A stretch of DNA of 7,129 bases from a virus (IMGVR_UViG_2651869750_000012), one strand, 5' to 3'; shown: positions 71 through 6,977, counted from the first letter of the stretch. Translations and numbers: made by a program. The notes: generated by a model from the sequence alone, not told the origin.

Positions 71-460
71 TCAGGCGGCTGCACCCGCCGTTTTCTCGTA
101 CTTACTGATAGTGATCTCGACCTTCCCTCCCGGGATAACCGGTCCCCACTCAACCAGCATTCTTTTCACCTGACTGTCGTCTTCCCACACACCCGCATGG
201 GTCAGGGCGTCAAACAGCGCCTTGTTATAGTTGTCCAGATCGCGGATCCGGTTATCCGGAGGAAACAACACGATCTCCACTGAAGCAGGTGCCGACGTTG
301 GTTTTGGCAGACGACGTAACTGCTCAACTATTGCTGCACACGCCGCGCTCTGGAATTTGCGCCCCGCCGCGCTTATCAGGCTCTTACCAGCAAATGCCCC
401 TTTGTTGGGGTGTCGCCAGTACGTGTTCACGCTGGGCGGGAAAGGCAGGATCAGCTTCAT
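71..460 (-). CDS. rusA: Crossover junction endodeoxyribonuclease RusA (Holliday junction resolvase)
   Basis: 129-aa ORF. N-terminal LPFPPSVNTYWRH and central PDNRIRDLDNYNKALFDALTHAGVWEDDSQV align motif-for-motif with my recollection of E. coli RusA ([44 protein letters not shown]), including the catalytic acidic residues. The ATG (460..458) overlaps the upstream MTase stop as ATGA. Confidence 0.9.
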   Translation of the reverse strand: MKLILPFPPSVNTYWRHPNKGAFAGKSLISAAGRKFQSAACAAIVEQLRRLPKPTSAPASVEIVLFPPDNRIRDLDNYNKALFDALTHAGVWEDDSQVKRMLVEWGPVIPGGKVEITISKYEKTAGAAA

Positions 461-1110
461 GCCACCATCTCCCTGACCAGTTTTTCTGCCTGCTGGCGAA
501 CCTGCGCCAGAAAGGCCTCACCACATGCCTCAAGTTCATCGCGCCCGATGTAGCTGATTGCCGGTCCCTTCCAGGTCTTGTCAAAAACAGCAATAGCACC
601 AGCGAAGAAAGCGCCTGTCGGCACCTGCTTCTCATCCTTCGGGATAAACCAGGCAGGCAGTTCAAAACCAATACGCCCGCGAATAAAAGCAATATGGTCC
701 GCATCTTCCGGCCACCACACTTCGCTGGTGGCAGCTTTGATCAGGAAAACATAGCGCCCGCCCTTATCACGCATGGCACTGGCATGTTTCATGATGTAAC
801 GCATGCCGGTGATGTATTGCCCCTCATGCTGACTGGCGCGGCTGTATGGAGGATTACCAAAGGCAGCACCTTTAAGCTCCACAAGGCGTTCTGACCAGTC
901 ATGCGCCAGCGCGTTGTCTTCCGCCGTGTAATACGCGGCACATTTGGCGTTATCACCGTCAGTGAACAGATCCAGAACAAACGGGCCAAACAGGGTGTTA
1001 ATTCCCCAGAAAATGTTGTCCGGCGTGCGCCACTGATCACCCACTTCCTTCAGTTCATGGGCTGGTTTGTTCCGCAGTTCCACCAGCTCCTGGCAATATT
1101 TATTACTCAT
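457..1110 (-). CDS. Phage Dam-family DNA N6-adenine methyltransferase (orphan; no nuclease partner in the window)
   Basis: Contains the amino-MTase catalytic motif GNPPYS and WRTPDNIFWG..FGPFVLDLFTDGDNAKCAAYYT, which I recognise as typical of the phage T1-type Dam family. Start is ambiguous: the ORF track begins at a GTG at 1143, which would overlap the upstream gene by 34 nt; I prefer the ATG at 1110..1108, which overlaps the YfdN-like stop as TAATG and gives 217 aa. Confidence 0.85.
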   Translation of the reverse strand: MSNKYCQELVELRNKPAHELKEVGDQWRTPDNIFWGINTLFGPFVLDLFTDGDNAKCAAYYTAEDNALAHDWSERLVELKGAAFGNPPYSRASQHEGQYITGMRYIMKHASAMRDKGGRYVFLIKAATSEVWWPEDADHIAFIRGRIGFELPAWFIPKDEKQVPTGAFFAGAIAVFDKTWKGPAISYIGRDELEACGEAFLAQVRQQAEKLVREMVA

Positions 1111-1604
1111 TAAGCCCCCACGTAATTCCCTGACAGATACCACTCATCACCCGATACAGCGCGCTTGCTGCTTTTCCGTAAACACTGCTCACGACGCGCC
1201 AGAAAATTGTTTCGTTCTGGCTGGGAGTGGCTTTCACGGAATGCCGCCATCCACACCGTTGCAGCACGACGGTATAGGCCCCTGGACTCCAGTTCTTCCG
1301 CCTGGCGGGTCAGGCACAAAATCACCCGGGGATCGTTAGTGCCGACATAGAAATTGCGCACAGGTCTGGTTTCACGAACTGGTTGTAGTTCCGGCTCCTG
1401 CGCTCTCTCAGTCAGGCGTGGGAAATGTCTGCGTGTATCTCCTTCACAACGGTGAGCCACACGCCCACTCTGACGTAACTTGCTTGCTGACTGCAGAACG
1501 CGCTGCCGTGAGTAACCTGCAAAAGCATCCGCAATGTCTCCGGAAGTACACCCCGGATGGGCTTCAATGAATTTCTGAACGTCATTCAAAAGACTCATGA
1601 TCAC
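1110..1604 (-). CDS. yfdN: YfdN-like protein: N-terminal winged-helix-like region plus C-terminal PerC-like domain (putative transcriptional regulator)
   Basis: 164-aa ORF. The C-terminal AEELESRGLYRRAATVW resembles the PerC/Pch signature as I recall it (A-E-x-L-E-x-K/R-G-L/F-W/Y-R-R-A-A-x-x-W). Length matches my recollection of K-12 YfdN (164 aa); the gene symbol is from memory, not a search. Track start is GTG 1604 (GTGA overlap with the O-like stop); an ATG at 1598 preceded by AGGGGG is an equally plausible start. Confidence 0.65.
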   Translation of the reverse strand: MIMSLLNDVQKFIEAHPGCTSGDIADAFAGYSRQRVLQSASKLRQSGRVAHRCEGDTRRHFPRLTERAQEPELQPVRETRPVRNFYVGTNDPRVILCLTRQAEELESRGLYRRAATVWMAAFRESHSQPERNNFLARREQCLRKSSKRAVSGDEWYLSGNYVGA

Positions 1605-2419
1605 CCCCTGAATCCTGCCGGGATCTGGCTGTAGTCCACGTTGTCGTAACTGGCTTTGAAGTACGGGTCCTCGCGTCTGGCTGCAGATATCGCAGGAACT
1701 TCCCAGGATTCTTCGAAATGACGATCCGGACCAAAGAACGTGACAGCCTGTTTCACAAATTGTGTGCCGCTGTTACCCATCGCAGATACCCAGCCCGCGT
1801 AGCGTTTCACACCTTCCAGCATGGTTTCGGGGTTTACCCCCTCGTTCAAACGGGCTTTCCAGGCTTTGAAGGCTGCAGATTTTGAATTGCCACCAGCACG
1901 TTTGGGATATGCCAGCCATGCCTGCTCAAACTCCGGAGAGTATTCCGGTCGGTTTGAACGAACTCGCACGGACTCATCAACTGATGCACCAACAGCTATT
2001 GGTTCATTGACTGGTTCTTTGACTGGTTCAAAAGAGTGACTGGTTCTGGGTGAATCTCCTGCACTACCCCCTGGTGCAACTCCTGCACTACCTGGTGAAT
2101 TTGCTGCACCAGATAGTGAATTATTTGCACTACCCCCTAGTGAATCTCCTGCACCATCCAGATGAAGGAGATAGATATTACTTGAGTTACCTTTTTCACC
2201 TTTCCGGGTGACTTTTTTTACCAGCCCGGACTCACAGAGGGCCGCAATATGATTCATCACAGAACGTTTGCTAATCTCGCACTGATCAGCGATATGCTGA
2301 TAGCTGGGCCAGCACTCACCCTGATCGCTGGCATTATCAGCCAGCTTGATCAGAACCAGTTTTCGCAATGGATTACCCACTCGAATTTTCATCGCTTTAA
2401 CCATCAGCTCCATACTCAT
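1601..2419 (-). CDS. Lambda O-like replication initiation protein (N-terminal HTH iteron-binding-like domain, Gly/Ser/Ala-rich linker, C-terminal YdaU/DnaT-like domain)
   Basis: 272-aa ORF. N-terminus (LRKLVLIKLADNASDQGECWPSYQHIADQCEISKRSVMNHIAALCESGLVKK) has the winged-helix pattern of lambda O N-terminal domains. C-terminus (AWLAYPKRAGGNSKSAAFKAWKARL...QFVKQAVTFFGPDRHFEESW) matches what I recall of the YdaU/DUF1376-type replication domain. ATG at 2419 is preceded by GGAGG at 6 nt and overlaps the upstream stop as ATGA. The middle of the gene carries iteron-like DNA repeats. Confidence 0.8.
   Translation of the reverse strand: MSMELMVKAMKIRVGNPLRKLVLIKLADNASDQGECWPSYQHIADQCEISKRSVMNHIAALCESGLVKKVTRKGEKGNSSNIYLLHLDGAGDSLGGSANNSLSGAANSPGSAGVAPGGSAGDSPRTSHSFEPVKEPVNEPIAVGASVDESVRVRSNRPEYSPEFEQAWLAYPKRAGGNSKSAAFKAWKARLNEGVNPETMLEGVKRYAGWVSAMGNSGTQFVKQAVTFFGPDRHFEESWEVPAISAARREDPYFKASYDNVDYSQIPAGFRG
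2008..2160. repeat. Iteron-like direct repeats inside the O-like gene (candidate phage replication origin)
   Basis: Three copies of TGACTGGTTC at about 2008-2017, 2020-2029 and 2037-2046. Then five imperfect 20-25-bp direct repeats with consensus about tGGTGAATcTcCTGCACtACCcc at about 2047-2071, 2072-2092, 2093-2110, 2115-2137 and 2138-2157, followed by a more AT-rich stretch at 2161-2220. The position in the inter-domain linker of the initiator mirrors ori-lambda inside gene O. Confidence 0.45.
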
Positions 2420-2652
2420 GCTGCACCTCCGAGATGCTTCATGTTTTTTCCGGAGCGAAAGGCTATAAGCGGCATACTGACGCGGTAATTACGGCCCAGC
2501 GGTTCACAAATCACCTTCTGGCATTCACGGTCAACCAGGCTAACACGTAGAACATGCCCTGCAGGCGTGGTGTACCACTGCCCAACTGTAGGAATTGATG
2601 TTTTTTTACGCTGAAGTAAACGGCGAATATTGAGGCTCAACGGATTAAGCAT
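2416..2652 (-). CDS. Hypothetical 78-aa protein, translationally coupled between the 278-aa gene and the O-like gene
   Basis: ATG at 2652..2650 preceded by GGAGGG at 7-nt spacing; start overlaps the upstream stop (ATGCTTAA) and stop overlaps the O-like start (ATGA). I recognise no motif. Confidence 0.55.
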   Translation of the reverse strand: MLNPLSLNIRRLLQRKKTSIPTVGQWYTTPAGHVLRVSLVDRECQKVICEPLGRNYRVSMPLIAFRSGKNMKHLGGAA

Positions 2653-3481
2653 GACGATGCCCTCCGCTGATATTCAGGAGACGGTGAATATGAAAATTAG
2701 CCTTATCCGCCAGACGAATACGTTCAGCCTGCAAGTTAAGAAGGGTTTCTACCAAAACCTGATGCGCCTGGGGATCCGAAAGAGTTACCTTGCGCAGAGC
2801 ACGTAGTGCAGTTGTTACATAACTGAGTTTATGTAAGTCTTCATCATTCAGACGAGTGAGGGCTGGGACAGTAGCCATGATGGCAGCCTCCTTGATCGGT
2901 GAAATACTTCCACCACCGGAAACGCCAATTTCGCTGGTGGTGAACTGAACGGGGTTGGCGTAACCGGTGATCAAGGAAACCGGCGCATCTTTCGATGCCC
3001 CCGCCCAGCCCACCATAACTTTGATGTGAGCAAATGCGGACGATAAAAAAGACGCTGGCGCGTCATATATCGCCTTGATCAATTCCAGGACGCCAATCCC
3101 GGCACCCGCTTTATAAGGTGCCTGAACAGTGTAACGTCCCGGAATGGCAGAATCAATGTGCTGGTGGTCCTTCACACTCAACAAAATCACGCCTGAATTT
3201 CCACAAAGGACTAAAGCACTCATGCGGGTAGTCTTTGCGAAGATAGATAACGCGCTGTGTTTCTGGCTCCCAACGAATAACATGAACATAAAGTCCTCTT
3301 CCGTCACGAAACCAGCGGTTAAGTTCCTGCACAACTCGCCCCCCACAGTCAGGTAAAGTTCTCTGTGGTTACTTACAGCCAGGTGATTTGGTAATCTGCA
3401 TTCATGCCGTAACAACAGGTGTTCAGCGACGCTGACCACCAGCTGTTGCGACAAACGGTTATTTGCCGTTAAACTGTTCAT
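2645..3481 (-). CDS. Hypothetical 278-aa protein of unknown function (predicted alpha/beta, Gly-rich loops AGAGIG and GVSGGGS)
   Basis: Long ORF in the operon sense strand; ATG at 3481..3479 overlaps the CII-like stop as ATGA. It fits none of the lambdoid replication or regulatory families I know, and lacks Walker A, PP-loop, NPPY and HEPN motifs. The alternating hydrophobic strand/helix pattern with glycine-rich loops suggests a Rossmann-like fold, but that is inference only. Confidence 0.7.
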   Translation of the reverse strand: MNSLTANNRLSQQLVVSVAEHLLLRHECRLPNHLAVSNHRELYLTVGGELCRNLTAGFVTEEDFMFMLFVGSQKHSALSIFAKTTRMSALVLCGNSGVILLSVKDHQHIDSAIPGRYTVQAPYKAGAGIGVLELIKAIYDAPASFLSSAFAHIKVMVGWAGASKDAPVSLITGYANPVQFTTSEIGVSGGGSISPIKEAAIMATVPALTRLNDEDLHKLSYVTTALRALRKVTLSDPQAHQVLVETLLNLQAERIRLADKANFHIHRLLNISGGHRHA

Positions 3482-4041
3482 GCGTTAGTTTCTCCACAGA
3501 CACAAAACGCCACGACGCCCGGAGCTGCACACTCGCGGGCGTCACTCTTTTCTGGAGCGCAAAAGATTTTGTAGACCAGTGCTGCATGCTCCTGGAGCTT
3601 CGAAATTGACAGATACAACTCATCATTAATTGCTGTCTGCTCGTGTGGCTCCGCTACCCCATCTTCGATTGCCGAACGAATCTGCTTTGAGTAACTCCCG
3701 ATCTGTTCGATGACTTCCAGCAGGCGCTGGTTTATATCGGCGTTCTCTACTTCCTCAATTTCAGGAAGCGATACAAACACCCCACCAGCAGACTGTGCGA
3801 CAGCATCCGCAATGTAGTGAGTGCCAGCCGCGCGCTGTAAAATCATTGCCCATCCCAGCGGGAAAATCTGATCGCCATCTGCACGAAGGCGGTTGAATAA
3901 AGCGTTCTCTGTTACATCCAGCCACTCAGCAGCTTCAGCGTAACCCCCCGGCAACGCCGCGATAGTTTTTCTGACAGCTTTCACGTACCACTCAGGCTGT
4001 TTTTCTACTTTCCAGTGATGCTTACCCACGGTTAGCCTCAT
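3478..4041 (-). CDS. CII-like early regulatory protein (phage 186 CII/CP76 or YdaT-like family)
   Basis: 187-aa ORF in the second position of the early-right operon after the cro-like gene. The N-terminal region (AEWLDVTENALFNRLRADGDQIFPLGWAMILQRAAG...) follows the residue pattern of 186 CII as I recall it. The Shine-Dalgarno is weak, so the start may differ. Family assignment is from memory. Confidence 0.55.
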   Translation of the reverse strand: MRLTVGKHHWKVEKQPEWYVKAVRKTIAALPGGYAEAAEWLDVTENALFNRLRADGDQIFPLGWAMILQRAAGTHYIADAVAQSAGGVFVSLPEIEEVENADINQRLLEVIEQIGSYSKQIRSAIEDGVAEPHEQTAINDELYLSISKLQEHAALVYKIFCAPEKSDARECAAPGVVAFCVCGETNA

Positions 4042-4072: not shown

Positions 4073-4273
4073 TTAATCTTTCGGATAGATATCCGGTCTT
4101 AAGTCATATTTCGTAATTGCACCTGACGTGCATTGCTCAAGTTTTTTAGCCAGCACAAAACTGGCTTTTTTATAACCATTGAAAACCAGCCGTAAGTAGC
4201 CTGGTGTTGAGCCAACTTTTCCGGCCAACTCGCCCTGCTGTTCTTTGGTTAAAGAGTCCCAATACGCTTTCAT
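4073..4273 (-). CDS. cro: Cro-like repressor (YdaS/Cro-CI family HTH protein, 66 aa)
   Basis: The track ORF 4073..4576 overlaps cI antisense. The internal ATG at 4273..4271 is preceded by GGAGG (reverse complement of 4284-4288) and gives a 66-aa protein, MKAYWDSLTKEQQGELAGKVGSTPGYLRLVFNGYKKAS...KYDLRPDIYPKD, with an HTH and the C-terminal LRPDI motif I associate with YdaS-type Cro proteins. It lies divergent from cI across the operator region. Confidence 0.75.
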   Translation of the reverse strand: MKAYWDSLTKEQQGELAGKVGSTPGYLRLVFNGYKKASFVLAKKLEQCTSGAITKYDLRPDIYPKD

Positions 4274-4363: not shown

Positions 4364-5038
4364 ATGAAAACAGTCCATGACATCCGGCGGTCTAACGCCA
4401 GAAAACTGAGAGATGGTGTTGGCGGGAATTCTTCCTTTGCCACCATGATTGATCGCGAGCCAACCCAGACCAGCAGGTTTATGGGAGATGGTGCTACTAA
4501 AAATATCGGTGACAGCATGGCACGGCACATCGAAAAATGTTTCGACCTGCCTGTCGGATGGCTTGATCAAGAACACCAGACAACAAACATCACAAAAAAA
4601 CCTGATGTTTCAATTACTAACAAACAAATAACGTTAGTCCCTGTCATATCATGGGTACAGGCCGGAGCATGGAAAGAAGTTGGCTATTCTGAGGTTGATT
4701 TGAGCACAGCAGAAACTTATCCCTGCCCTGTACCCTGTGGCGAAATGACTTATATCTTGCGGGTGATTGGTGATTCAATGATTGATGAGTACCGCCCGGG
4801 AGACATGATTTTTGTAGATCCTGAAGTCCCTGCCTGCCACGGTGACGACGTTATTGCATTGATGCACGATACAGGCGAAACCACCTTTAAGCGGTTGATA
4901 GAAGATGGAACACAGCGTTACCTCAAAGCATTAAACCCAAACTGGCCTGAACCTTACATTAAGATCAACGGTAATTGCTCTATAATTGGTACAGTAATTT
5001 TCTCAGGAAAACCAAGAAGATACAAAATAAAGGCCTAA
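4364..5038 (+). CDS. cI: Prophage cI repressor (N-terminal HTH, C-terminal LexA-like S24 autopeptidase)
   Basis: 224 aa. The C-terminal domain aligns closely with my recollection of P22 C2: ISWVQAG-AW vs ISWVSAG-QW (Ala100-Gly101 cleavage site), VIGDSM (Ser138 nucleophile), FVDPEV, TFKRL (Lys176), LNPNWPEPYIKINGNCSIIG vs LNPQYPMIEINGNCKIIG. Confidence 0.9.
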   Translation: MKTVHDIRRSNARKLRDGVGGNSSFATMIDREPTQTSRFMGDGATKNIGDSMARHIEKCFDLPVGWLDQEHQTTNITKKPDVSITNKQITLVPVISWVQAGAWKEVGYSEVDLSTAETYPCPVPCGEMTYILRVIGDSMIDEYRPGDMIFVDPEVPACHGDDVIALMHDTGETTFKRLIEDGTQRYLKALNPNWPEPYIKINGNCSIIGTVIFSGKPRRYKIKA

Positions 5039-5049
5039 TCAATATTTAT

Positions 5050-5072
5050 AACCTGCTTCGGCAGGTTTTTTT
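5050..5072 (+). terminator. Rho-independent terminator downstream of cI
   Basis: Stem AACCTGC (5050-5056), loop TTCG, stem GCAGGTT (5061-5067), then a T-run (5066-5072), 12 nt after the cI stop codon. Confidence 0.7.
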
Positions 5073-5076
5073 ATAC

Positions 5077-5121
5077 TTGACAATGTACCCTTGAGATACA
5101 TAATGTATCTAAAAGAAACAT
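5077..5121 (+). promoter_or_regulatory. Strong sigma70-like promoter (early-left, PL analogue) overlapped by two tandem operator-like 19-bp palindromes
   Basis: -35 TTGACA (5077-5082), 16-nt spacer, -10 CATAAT (5099-5104). Operator-like sites 5083-5101 ATGTACC-CTTGA-GATACAT and 5103-5121 ATGTATC-TAAAA-GAAACAT share the half-site seen in the cro-cI intergenic operators. An 8-1-8 palindrome AGATACAT-A-ATGTATCT (5094-5110) bridges the two sites. Confidence 0.55.
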
Positions 5122-5541
5122 GTCACAGGCAAGATTAAACAAAATTTGGTTGTAACACGGCGTATGGCACATGCGTCGTTAGCGGTCTGGGGACGTTAAA
5201 GGGGACAATCCACTCCTTGCTCGGGCAAACAAACCAGGTAGCCGGAATGTGCAAGTCAATGATGATGCTGATAAGACGCCTAACCAGCGTGGCGGTTCGG
5301 TTTGACACCTGGGAAGAGACCAGGGTGCAACGATGAGGGCATTTATGGAACCGCGACAAAGTGTGGTGCCGTAACTGGCTAAGTGCTCTCAGCGTTGTGG
5401 TGAATGCGCAGGCTGATGCGCGAAAGACATTGCAGCTAATGCGGAAAAGAGCTGTTCGGCGGGGCAATTAAACGCCCGTGAGAGTCTGAAATAACCGCAA
5501 GCCGGAGATCAGCACCGGTCACCACAACAGCCACTGCTTTG

Positions 5542-5588
5542 GCGGTACCAGTTTGTACACTTGCTTCCGGCTGGTACCGCTCTTTTTA
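5542..5588 (+). terminator. Intrinsic terminator inside the early-left leader, upstream of the YfdP-like gene
   Basis: Perfect 10-bp GC-rich stem GCGGTACCAG (5542-5551) / CTGGTACCGC (5571-5580), 19-nt loop, followed by TCTTTTTA (5581-5588). Confidence 0.55.
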
Positions 5589-5589
5589 C

Positions 5590-5674
5590 AAAACAGAGAA
5601 GAGCATCACCGGACGACGGGCTCATAACCCAATCCATCCGGGCGGCTGCCACCGCAGGTGTTCTTCTCTGTTTT
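5590..5674 (+). other. Long-range 15-bp inverted repeat (putative RNA stem enclosing a ~55-nt structured loop) in the leader just upstream of the YfdP-like ribosome-binding site
   Basis: AAAACAGAGAAGAGC (5590-5604) is complementary to GTTCTTCTCTGTTTT (5660-5674) with a single G-U position; the enclosed loop contains shorter GC stems (for example GCGG 5642-5645 / CCGC 5652-5655). Confidence 0.4.
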
Positions 5675-5724
5675 GTGGAGAAACCAACCGACCTTGCAGG
5701 GTCGATATGATGAGGAGCAGCAAA

Positions 5725-6087
5725 ATGGCTAGCGAACGCAGTACTGATGTGCAGGCATTTATCGGGGAGCTGGACGGCGGCGTATTTGAAACCAAAATCG
5801 GCGCAGTTCTCAGTGAGGTCGCTTCCGGTGTGATGAACACGAAAACCAAAGGGAAGGTCTCACTCAATCTGGAAATCGAACCGTTTGATGAGAACCGTGT
5901 GAAAATCAAACACAAACTCTCATATGTTCGCCCAACTAACCGCGGGAAAATTTCCGAAGAAGACACCACCGAAACGCCGATGTATGTCAATCGCGGTGGT
6001 CGCCTGACTATTCTGCAGGAAGACCAGGGACAATTACTGACTCTTGCCGGTGAACCTGACGGAAAACTCCGCGCAGCAGGTCATTAA
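5725..6087 (+). CDS. yfdP: YfdP-like prophage protein of unknown function (120 aa)
   Basis: The track ORF 5539..6087 begins at a TTG and runs through the terminator hairpin. The internal ATG at 5725 is preceded by GAGGAG (5712-5717) at 7-nt spacing and gives 120 aa, matching my recollection of K-12 YfdP length. Gene symbol is from memory, unverified. Confidence 0.65.
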   Translation: MASERSTDVQAFIGELDGGVFETKIGAVLSEVASGVMNTKTKGKVSLNLEIEPFDENRVKIKHKLSYVRPTNRGKISEEDTTETPMYVNRGGRLTILQEDQGQLLTLAGEPDGKLRAAGH

Positions 6088-6152
6088 TATCGTTCTTAAT
6101 TAACTGATTATTTATCTCATCACTGAATATCTTTATATAGTGAGGACTTATT

Positions 6153-6977
6153 ATGTCTCAGAACTTAGACGCAACCGCAATTAATCAAATCCATGCCCTT
6201 ATTTCTGCTCAGGGTGTTAATGAAATTATCAGTAAGATTGGTGCCGATGCTGTGGCATTGCCTGAGAATTTCCGCATTCATGATCTGGAAAAATTTAATT
6301 TAAATCGCTTCCGTTTCCGTGGTGCACTTTCCACTGCCAGCATCGATGATTTTACCCGTTATTCTAAAGATCTTGCAGATGAAGGCACCCGCTGCTTTAT
6401 CGATGCCGATAATATGCGTGCCGTCAGTGTGCTTAACCTGGGTACTATTGATGAGCCAGGTCACGCAGATAACACTGCCACTCTCAAACTGAAAAAGACA
6501 GCACCGTTCTCTGCTCTGTTGTCTGTTAACGGCGAGCGTAACTCCCAGAAGTCACTGGCAGAATGGATCGAAGACTGGGCCGACTACCTTGTGGGCTTTG
6601 ATGCTAATGGTGACGCCATTCAAGCAACAAAAGCGGCTGCGGCAGTCCGTAAAATCACGATTGAAGCAAACCAGACCGCTGATTTTGAAGATAATGACTT
6701 CAGCGGCAAACGCTCCCTGATGGAGTCTGTCGAAGCGAAGACCAAAGACATTATGCCAGTGGCATTTGAATTTAAATGCGTTCCGTTTGAAGGTCTGAAA
6801 GAACGTCCGTTTAAATTACGCCTCAGCATTATCACTGGCGATCGTCCTGTACTGGTTCTGCGCATTATTCAGCTGGAAGCGGTGCAGGAAGAAATGGCTA
6901 ACGAATTTCGTGATCTGCTTGTTGAGAAATTCAAAGACAGCAAAGTAGAAACCTTTATTGGTACTTTCACCGCCTGA
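6153..6977 (+). CDS. yfdQ: YfdQ-like prophage protein of unknown function (274 aa; DUF2303-type as I recall)
   Basis: Clean 274-aa ORF with GTGAGGA 6 nt upstream of the ATG; the length equals what I recall for K-12 YfdQ. I recognise no catalytic motif. Gene symbol is from memory, unverified. Confidence 0.75.

Follow-up and report, generated by a model that had tools for sequence, protein, structure and literature searches.

A putative replication origin built of iterons and a conserved repeat box within the initiator gene of an SfV/ST64B/mEp460-type lambdoid prophage

The viral sequence IMGVR_UViG_2651869750_000012 (7,129 bp; hereafter the window, meaning the whole stretch of DNA that was analyzed) represents the early region of a lambdoid Escherichia coli prophage and is a 100% match to one RefSeq genome. 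Its replication initiator gene shows a DNA identity of 99.4% to orf39 of Shigella phage SfV and of 88% to sb42 of ST64B, and its product is the replication protein of the SfV/ST64B/mEp460-type phages. Within this gene, an array of five dyad-symmetric repeat units, taken here as iterons, is directly followed by a box of short direct repeats. The segment containing both (2008-2154) is interpreted as the replication origin of this phage type, located inside its only replication gene, with a probability of about 80%. A first-pass annotation of the window had already proposed a probable phage origin at this place, and this proposal is supported by the conservation at the DNA level, the position of the array and its co-variation with the N-terminal domain of the initiator. 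The features of the gene are:

1601-2419, minus strand: open reading frame (ORF) of the replication initiator, 272 amino acids (aa); Pfam HTH_36 with 44 bits; PHROG 270 'replication initiation protein' with 1e-87
2162-2419, minus strand: N-terminal winged-helix DNA-binding domain, aa 1-86 (HTH_36 2e-12; DnaD_N 27.8 bits; AlphaFold; Foldseek)
2155-2220, no strand assigned: moderately AT-rich stretch, 36% GC (guanine plus cytosine), on the N-terminal side of the array, encoding the wing of the winged helix
2050-2154, no strand assigned: iteron array of five 15-bp dyad units GTGMA-N5-TKCAC, encoding linker aa 89-123
2050-2064, 2074-2088, 2095-2109, 2116-2130 and 2140-2154: the iteron units, with a centre-to-centre spacing of 24, 21, 21 and 24 bp
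2008-2049, minus strand: conserved box abutting the last iteron; the gene strand reads CCCAGAACCAGTCAC-TCTTTT-GAACCAGTCAA-A-GAACCAGTCAA
1949-2149, minus strand: predicted disordered linker, aa 91-157 (predicted local distance difference test, pLDDT, below 50 in AlphaFold)
1604-1948, minus strand: C-terminal helical domain, aa 158-272 (helices 162-226, pLDDT 60-79 in AlphaFold)

The search with Tandem Repeats Finder revealed the array at 2050-2154 with a period of 24 and 4.6 copies, and all five units match the palindromic pattern GTGMANNNNNTKCAC. Both searches agree with the five longer direct repeats described in the first-pass annotation; the units found start at 2050, 2074, 2095, 2116 and 2140. 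In the window, GTGMANNNNNTKCAC has five matches, all of them in the array, compared to an expected number of 0.04, and none of 200 shuffled sequences reached five or more; as the pattern was taken from the five units themselves, this expectation is partly circular and somewhat flattering. Independent of that derivation are the spacing of 24/21/21/24 bp and the uniqueness in the whole 37-kb SfV genome, where the pattern was found only at the five homologous places (0.25 expected). No other sizeable tandem or direct-repeat array is present in the window.

The box contains three exact copies of TGACTGGTTC (2008-2017, 2020-2029 and 2037-2046), as stated before, and no further copy occurs in the window with up to one mismatch. 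On the gene strand these are three copies of GAACCAGTCA (2037-2046, 2020-2029 and 2008-2017) with spacings of 17 and 12 bp, which together encode PRTSHSFEPVKEPV. In the SfV genome, GAACCAGTCA occurs three times, each time beside the array. The placement of the repeats inside the initiator gene proved correct, as the array is part of the initiator ORF (1601-2419, minus strand), whose translation contains the two peptides given there. The reading of the short repeats as EPV codons holds for two copies, whereas copy 1 (2037-2046), which is nearest to the array, is read in a different frame from the other two and encodes (R)TSH.

The GC content of the box amounts to about 40-45%, and across species the box has a mean of 42% compared to 52% for the gene. 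In some relatives, A-rich tracts follow the box. The AT-rich flank that had been described on the other side of the array does exist (36% GC at 2155-2220 vs. a window mean of 49%), with the lowest 40-bp value of the gene, 32.5%, at 2156. It is modest, however, and several far more AT-rich stretches are located elsewhere in the window, with AT-richer intergenic sequence at 4948-5116 and 6073-6130. A role of this flank in the origin is uncertain. On the plus strand, a terminator-like hairpin with T-run (TCACCTTTCCGGGTGA CTTTTTTTAC) adjoins the array at 2196-2220, antisense to the initiator gene; the number of such hairpins in the surrounding region is at chance level. No RNA element was detected by Rfam in 1900-2300, and an antisense promoter in the TTGACT repeats was rejected because no sigma-70-like site could be found in 1500-2700.

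Repeats in this part of the gene could in principle be a by-product of slippage in a low-complexity Gly/Ser/Ala/Pro linker, with selection acting on the flexibility or length of the peptide and the DNA itself being functionless. Such an origin would agree with the predicted disorder of the encoded segment, with the free expansion and contraction of the unit number and with the fact that most units are in frame and render the peptide repetitive too. Under the origin interpretation, too, the linker, which is predicted to be disordered, is a coding context that tolerates repeats as well as their expansion and contraction. The relatives of the gene speak to this question. For this, 79 prophages from 79 species, including Shewanella, Vibrio, Aliivibrio, Pseudomonas, Marinomonas, Avibacterium and Thalassospira, were selected by the protein sequence of the N-domain only, and a zone was called as a repeat array if it contained at least three copies of a 10-mer with at most one mismatch. 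In total, the linker zone contains an array in 76 of the 79 loci, compared to one of 79 for the N-domain, three of 79 for the C-domain and one of 79 for the shuffled linker. Furthermore, all 12 divergent phage homologues that were inspected (30-69% identity) carry an array of two to six units at gene nucleotides ~260-370, namely those of AsXd-1, the Vibrio phages D67, D96a, phiV039C and Va_PF430-3, Stx2a_F403, a Klebsiella phage, ZF40, a Morganella phage, mEp013 and two Pseudomonas phages; the units are spaced by 21-24 bp, or by 17-22 bp in the two Pseudomonas phages.

The units of these arrays are dyads, with one core for each phage group: GTGCA-N5-TKCAC, GGGGCAG-GAG-CTGCCCC, TGTAGGC-N5-GCCTACA, TGCCA-N5-TGGCA, GTGACA-N4-TGTCAC and GGTGCA-AATGC-TGCACC; GGGGCAGGAGCTGCCCC and GGTGCAAATGCTGCACC are likewise examples of such type-specific cores. 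The dyad arms of the relatives are perfect over 6-7 bp. Dyad symmetry is a property of dimer-binding sites and meaningless for a peptide, and it therefore argues against slippage. The same holds for the many arrays with spacings of 23 + 22 bp, in which the middle unit is out of frame and unchanged in its DNA sequence, for the third-codon positions inside the unit arms, which are invariant, and for the linker peptides, which are wholly different between iteron types (GAGDS, PPMPSDGT, VTESH, GGAGAA) and are nevertheless encoded by dyad units of 21-24 bp at the same place. A conservation at the protein level only, which had been named as the observation that would speak against an origin, is thus not what was found. 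Together with the co-variation described below, slippage is very improbable, and judged by these comparisons the repeats are DNA-level elements, not merely linker codons.

As had been suggested for an alignment of homologues, the number of units varies between fixed flanking domains, and protein lengths of 242-302 aa correspond to about one to nine units. Phage cdtI has an additional 66 bp, i.e., three extra units, and among 80 loci with an identical N-domain, four to seven units fit the exact pattern and two to five short repeats are present. The common alleles P0028 (250 aa, 64 contigs) and P0042 (242 aa) have two units and one unit, respectively. Among 54 close alleles, variable sites account for 27% in the spacers, 10% in the arms, 4% in the centres and 7% in the box, numbers that are small and give weak support only.

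At least six iteron types could be distinguished, each tied to one type of recognition helix and wing. Array 9-mers are shared in 32 of 36 pairs in which the N-domains are at least 85% identical and the C-domains less than 30%, compared to 2% of the pairs with N-domains of less than 70% identity. Three natural chimeras (P0062, P0069, P0072) combine a foreign N-domain and its own array with a C-domain nearly identical to that of the window, and the Vibrio phages D67 (L006) and D96a (L214) have a common C-domain and differ in both N-domain and array. In these comparisons, the array sequence tracks the N-terminal DNA-binding domain and not the C-domain, which is a further point against slippage. 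The junction between the N-domain/iteron module and the C-domain module of the chimeras is the box.

In contrast to the iterons, the box is shared by nearly all members of the family, in which cacCCAGAACCAGTCAC-tctttt-GAACCAGTCAA-n-GAACC follows the last iteron at a fixed distance. In the protein-selected prophages, the box motif was found in 78 of 79 linker zones, one of 79 N-domains and five of 79 C-domains. A DNA search with the box revealed at least 120 viral contigs, whose upstream sequences form 29 clusters and which represent no fewer than six iteron types. Whereas the iterons diversify into numerous specificities, the box appears to stay constant. At identical amino acids of seven divergent phages, the same codon is used in 191 of 200 cases (95%) in the box vs. 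752 of 1,845 (41%) in the N-domain. The motif is present two to four times in the box, with spacers of 12, 15 or 17 bp between the copies, which therefore fall into different reading frames (RTSH, EPV). A changed peptide is encoded in mEp013, a Morganella phage and the Pseudomonas phages, all of which retain a DNA repeat of the GAACC/CAGTCA type. Because of the codon use, the frame-shifted copies and the DNA repeat that outlasts the change of the peptide, the box is considered to be constrained as DNA.

This constraint does not have to reflect an origin function. The box might be conserved as a joint for homologous recombination between modules, or on account of an essential peptide PRTSHSFEPVNEP, without any role in the origin. 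A recombination joint would fit the three chimeras, which break exactly at the box, and the C-domain types, which assort there; a functional element would also become a crossover point, so that the chimeras fit both explanations alike. The essential peptide has in its favor that most members keep it. Hard to reconcile with either version are the repetition of a 10-mer two to four times in different frames, the phages with changed peptide and retained DNA repeat, the 95% same-codon use although the flanks on both sides have diverged, and the fixed distance at which the box always abuts the last iteron. A conservation of the box for these reasons alone is therefore rather unlikely, although it is a serious alternative.

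As a tentative proposal, to which we give less than an even chance, the GAACCAGTCA box could be a functional, sequence-specific element common to all origins of a large HTH_36-type phage initiator family, where a conserved partner opens the DNA and loads the host helicase. Candidates for this partner are the initiator itself, binding single-stranded DNA through a conserved surface, or a component of the host primosome, helicase or primase. The family extends over Enterobacterales, Vibrio, Shewanella, Pseudomonas, Pasteurellaceae and one alphaproteobacterium. No description of the box or the iterons of this initiator family was found in the literature that could be searched, and a literature search for the motif sequence yielded nothing but unrelated primers.

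Further copies of the motif were noticed in two other contexts. The GGGGCAG-type and Morganella-type genes (L007, L010 and IMG/VR loci, e.g., L118 and L145) have an extra GAACCAGTCA-like copy (CTGAACCAGTCAAAC) about 40-60 nucleotides before the array. This copy encodes LNQSN in the wing, in a third reading frame, so that the motif brackets the array of these genes. In P22 (L218, NC_002371), the last iteron of the annotated rep_origin of gene 18 is followed at 3905-3925 by CCGAATCAGTCAAACAC, before the AT-rich tract. CCGAATCAGTCAAACAC equals GAACCAGTCAA at ten of 11 positions, and the initiator of P22 is of the unrelated Phage_rep_O type. The near-identical GAATCAGTCAA at the junction of iterons and AT-rich tract may be a motif read by a host factor, or may be a coincidence.

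The protein encoded around these elements consists of two predicted domains and, between them, a linker predicted to be disordered. For the N-domain, the AlphaFold model reaches a pLDDT of 80-94 over aa 1-85 with the secondary structure H-H-H-H-E-E, the predicted recognition helix being aa 51-64 and the beta-hairpin wing aa 67-85. HTH_36 (PF13730) matches the whole protein with 44.1 bits and the isolated N-domain with 47.1 bits, compared to a Pfam gathering cut-off of 25. DnaD_N (PF21984) scores 24.3 bits with the whole protein, below the cut-off of 27, and a borderline 27.8 bits with the isolated N-domain. Foldseek returned only winged helices for the N-domain, including DnaD-N 2v79 at E = 0.03 amid generic ones. 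The codons of the predicted disordered linker (1949-2149) take in the iteron array almost completely, the whole box and some 60 nucleotides downstream of the box.

No family could be assigned to the C-domain by Pfam, NCBIfam, a PDB sequence search, AlphaFold with Foldseek or a second homologue search; its sole labels are the PHROG names 'DnaD-like helicase loader' and 'primosomal protein'. A DnaT-like C-domain was considered and is unsupported, as only the PHROG names 'DnaD-like' and 'primosomal' remain after the profile and structure searches. The C-domain is presumed to contact the host replication machinery. The first-pass annotation had called the protein an O-like initiator, which applies to the architecture and not to the family: Phage_rep_O (PF04492) gave no match with the whole protein at E<=0.01 or with the isolated N-domain at E<=10, whereas gp18 of P22 scores 129 bits (1e-38) on this model, and the BLASTP comparison of the window protein with gp18 resulted in E = 5.3. 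The initiator of the window is accordingly placed outside the lambda-O family.

Neither a helicase, a loader nor a primase gene follows the initiator gene in the window, and none is present in the whole SfV genome, which has no second replication gene and no annotated origin. Relatives with other C-domains do carry helicase/loader-type genes (ZF40, phiV039C, Klebsiella phage).

From the anatomy established here, the conservation at the DNA level, the co-variation with the N-domain and the uniqueness in the genome, we infer binding of the initiator, firing of the origin and roles of the box and the C-domain in the following way. The five GTGMA-N5-TKCAC units, about 22 bp or two helical turns apart, would act as iterons, each bound by a dimer of the initiator N-domain, and would give rise to an O-some-like nucleoprotein complex, in which the dimers on one face of the helix would bend the DNA. 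The box, as the constant part of the origin, is located downstream in the direction of transcription like the AT-rich tract of lambda and would be acted on next; it would be the most likely site of duplex opening, single-strand binding or entry of the host helicase. The exchangeable C-domain would link the complex to the helicase-loading machinery of the host, since neither a helicase nor a loader is encoded by this type of phage.

Several points weigh against the interpretation of 2008-2154 as an origin. According to PMC12315714, lambdoid phages with an O homologue only have not been studied, nor is it understood how they replicate. A strongly AT-rich unwinding element is missing, and the AT-richest stretch (36% GC) lies on the side of the array opposite to that of lambda. 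Matches to the consensus of the DnaA box and of the integration host factor (IHF) site are at chance level near the array and absent from array and box. The codon and co-variation tests compare pairs that are not independent phylogenetically, and recombination at the box could add to its uniformity. Alleles with one or two units are common, so either few units suffice (two do so for the minimal lambda ori in vitro) or the prophages in question are replication-defective. Lastly, binding of the initiator in its own gene could serve autoregulation besides or instead of initiation.

The last point can be extended to an explanation in which the units form an initiator-binding autoregulatory operator, a roadblock or a copy-control (handcuffing) element, and replication starts elsewhere. 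The iterons of plasmids are generally known to be used for initiation and control alike (PMC3401445 for chrII), the array has no strong AT-rich unwinding element next to it, and the intergenic stretches at 4948-5116 and 6073-6130 are richer in AT. Yet the 37-kb SfV genome offers no other copy of the iteron pattern and the 7-kb early region no second repeat array, and in lambda, P22 and L it is the array within the gene that serves as the origin (PMC7466680, PMC8022706). Moreover, the conserved box beside the array is hard to explain by a mere operator. We regard this explanation as improbable and prefer the origin.

The origins of lambdoid coliphages were compared in the early 1980s and consist of type-specific iterons beside a conserved AT-rich part. 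In lambda, four 18-bp iterons with a period of about 22 bp and a 38-bp AT-rich tract, the site of duplex opening and DnaB loading, are located inside gene O (PMC3349717, PMC7466680). The arrangement in the window corresponds to that of lambda and of the Stx phages 933W and P27, with the origin about one third into the initiator gene, in the codons of the inter-domain linker (PMC3349717, PMC7466680). These systems further share four to six dyad-symmetric iterons with a period of about 22 bp, of which extra copies lengthen the protein, an iteron-binding N-domain (predicted here), a separately exchangeable C-domain and a constant element that follows the iterons along transcription. The comparison to ori-lambda drawn in the first-pass annotation is well founded in this respect, with an iteron array in linker codons and type-specific iterons as in lambda, P22 and L (PMC8022706, PMC7466680). 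Different from lambda are the initiator, which is a winged helix of the HTH_36/DnaD_N type without a Phage_rep_O match in place of O, the following gene, which is PerC-like and not a P-type loader or helicase, and the element beside the iterons, which is a box of GAACCAGTCA direct repeats and not a 38-bp tract of high AT content.

Gene 18 of P22 and L contains type-specific iterons of its own in the coding region, which are taken as the origin by inference or annotation (PMC8022706; rep_origin in NC_002371). The window has in common with them that type-specific repeats lie within the gene for the origin-binding protein. It differs in that gp18 of P22 is a Phage_rep_O protein without detectable similarity to the window protein, and in that gene 18 is followed by a gene for a DnaB-type helicase (gene 12).

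A winged-helix initiator and helically phased direct repeats, of 17-22 bp in the plasmids, are also found in the iteron plasmids (TrfA of RK2, RepE of F, pi of R6K, RepA of pPS10; PMC4081077, PMC4980987). The unwinding region of these plasmids contains short repeats that can be bound by Rep as single-stranded DNA (PMC4081077, PMC4980987). Unlike in the window, the plasmid iterons are located outside the rep gene, and the usual DnaA boxes and AT-rich unwinding element of the plasmids were not seen in the window.

A survey from 2025 detected 'O-only' modules in 34 of 314 lambdoid phages (Genome Res, PMC12315714). The LLS-type 'O-only' module resembles the window by its single O-analogue gene without helicase or loader and by its yfdQ-type (DUF2303) early-left genes, comparable to the ST64B-like early-left operon. 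An origin is not described in PMC12315714, and the anatomy of iterons and box results from the present analysis.

An iteron origin inside an O-like gene is textbook design and already known, and origins are routinely deduced in this manner in phage genomics. Less ordinary are the HTH_36 initiator family, the missing loader, the very wide distribution and a constant box next to diversifying iterons. As a candidate for the step that substitutes for the absent helicase loader, this box can be put to the test, and if it were indeed a universal part of the origin, it would account for the loader-less replication of 'O-only' lambdoid phages. With the putative origin narrowed to about 150 bp, a concrete substrate for binding and origin assays is available. 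The iteron type can be read from the sequence and may be used as a marker for incompatibility and replication specificity. For toxin-carrying phages, this would offer a handle on genome amplification, and hence on the dosage of toxin genes, after induction.

In 2,718 of 5,426 complete E. coli genomes a DNA match to the initiator gene was found, which is near-full-length in 897. The gene is also present in Stx2c-, Stx2a- and cdt-converting phages. The N-domain of the initiator is furthermore encoded on circular 'plasmids' of about 30-45 kb, namely NZ_CP148393.1 (44.6 kb), CP077666.1 (38.9 kb) and CP080634.1 (43.4 kb), and likewise in Arsenophonus records of 28-46 kb. The circular records of about 30-45 kb look like excised or episomal phage genomes and are uninformative with respect to the origin.

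The initiator gene belongs to an early-right-type operon on the minus strand. Listed in the order of this operon, followed by the genes of the plus strand, its neighbors in the window are:

4073-4273, minus strand: cro-like gene, first in the operon
3478-4041, minus strand: CII/CP76-like gene
2645-3481, minus strand: Ash-family ORF, 278 aa
2416-2652, minus strand: ORF of 78 aa
1110-1604, minus strand: PerC/YfdN-like gene, downstream of the initiator gene
457-1143, minus strand: Dam methylase, downstream of the PerC/YfdN-like gene
71-460, minus strand: RusA, last in the operon
4364-5038, plus strand: cI-type S24 repressor
6153-6977, plus strand: DUF2303/yfdQ-type gene

Between the repressor gene and the leftward operon (5040-5724, about 690 bp), no convincing ORF and no Rfam match at E<0.3 could be found. 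For such phages it was suggested in the LLS paper that N may be replaced by an antitermination element of the put-RNA type (PMC12315714). Inside the Ash-family ORF (2645-3481), the Rfam search identified a C4 antisense RNA (2933-3020, minus strand; 82 bits, E = 1e-15) and the Hfq-binding small RNA isrK (3045-3121, minus strand; 64 bits). Together, these matches look like a control module of the P1/P7-type c4-icd-ant antirepressor in the early-right operon, and given their position the call of the Ash-family ORF may be partly spurious.

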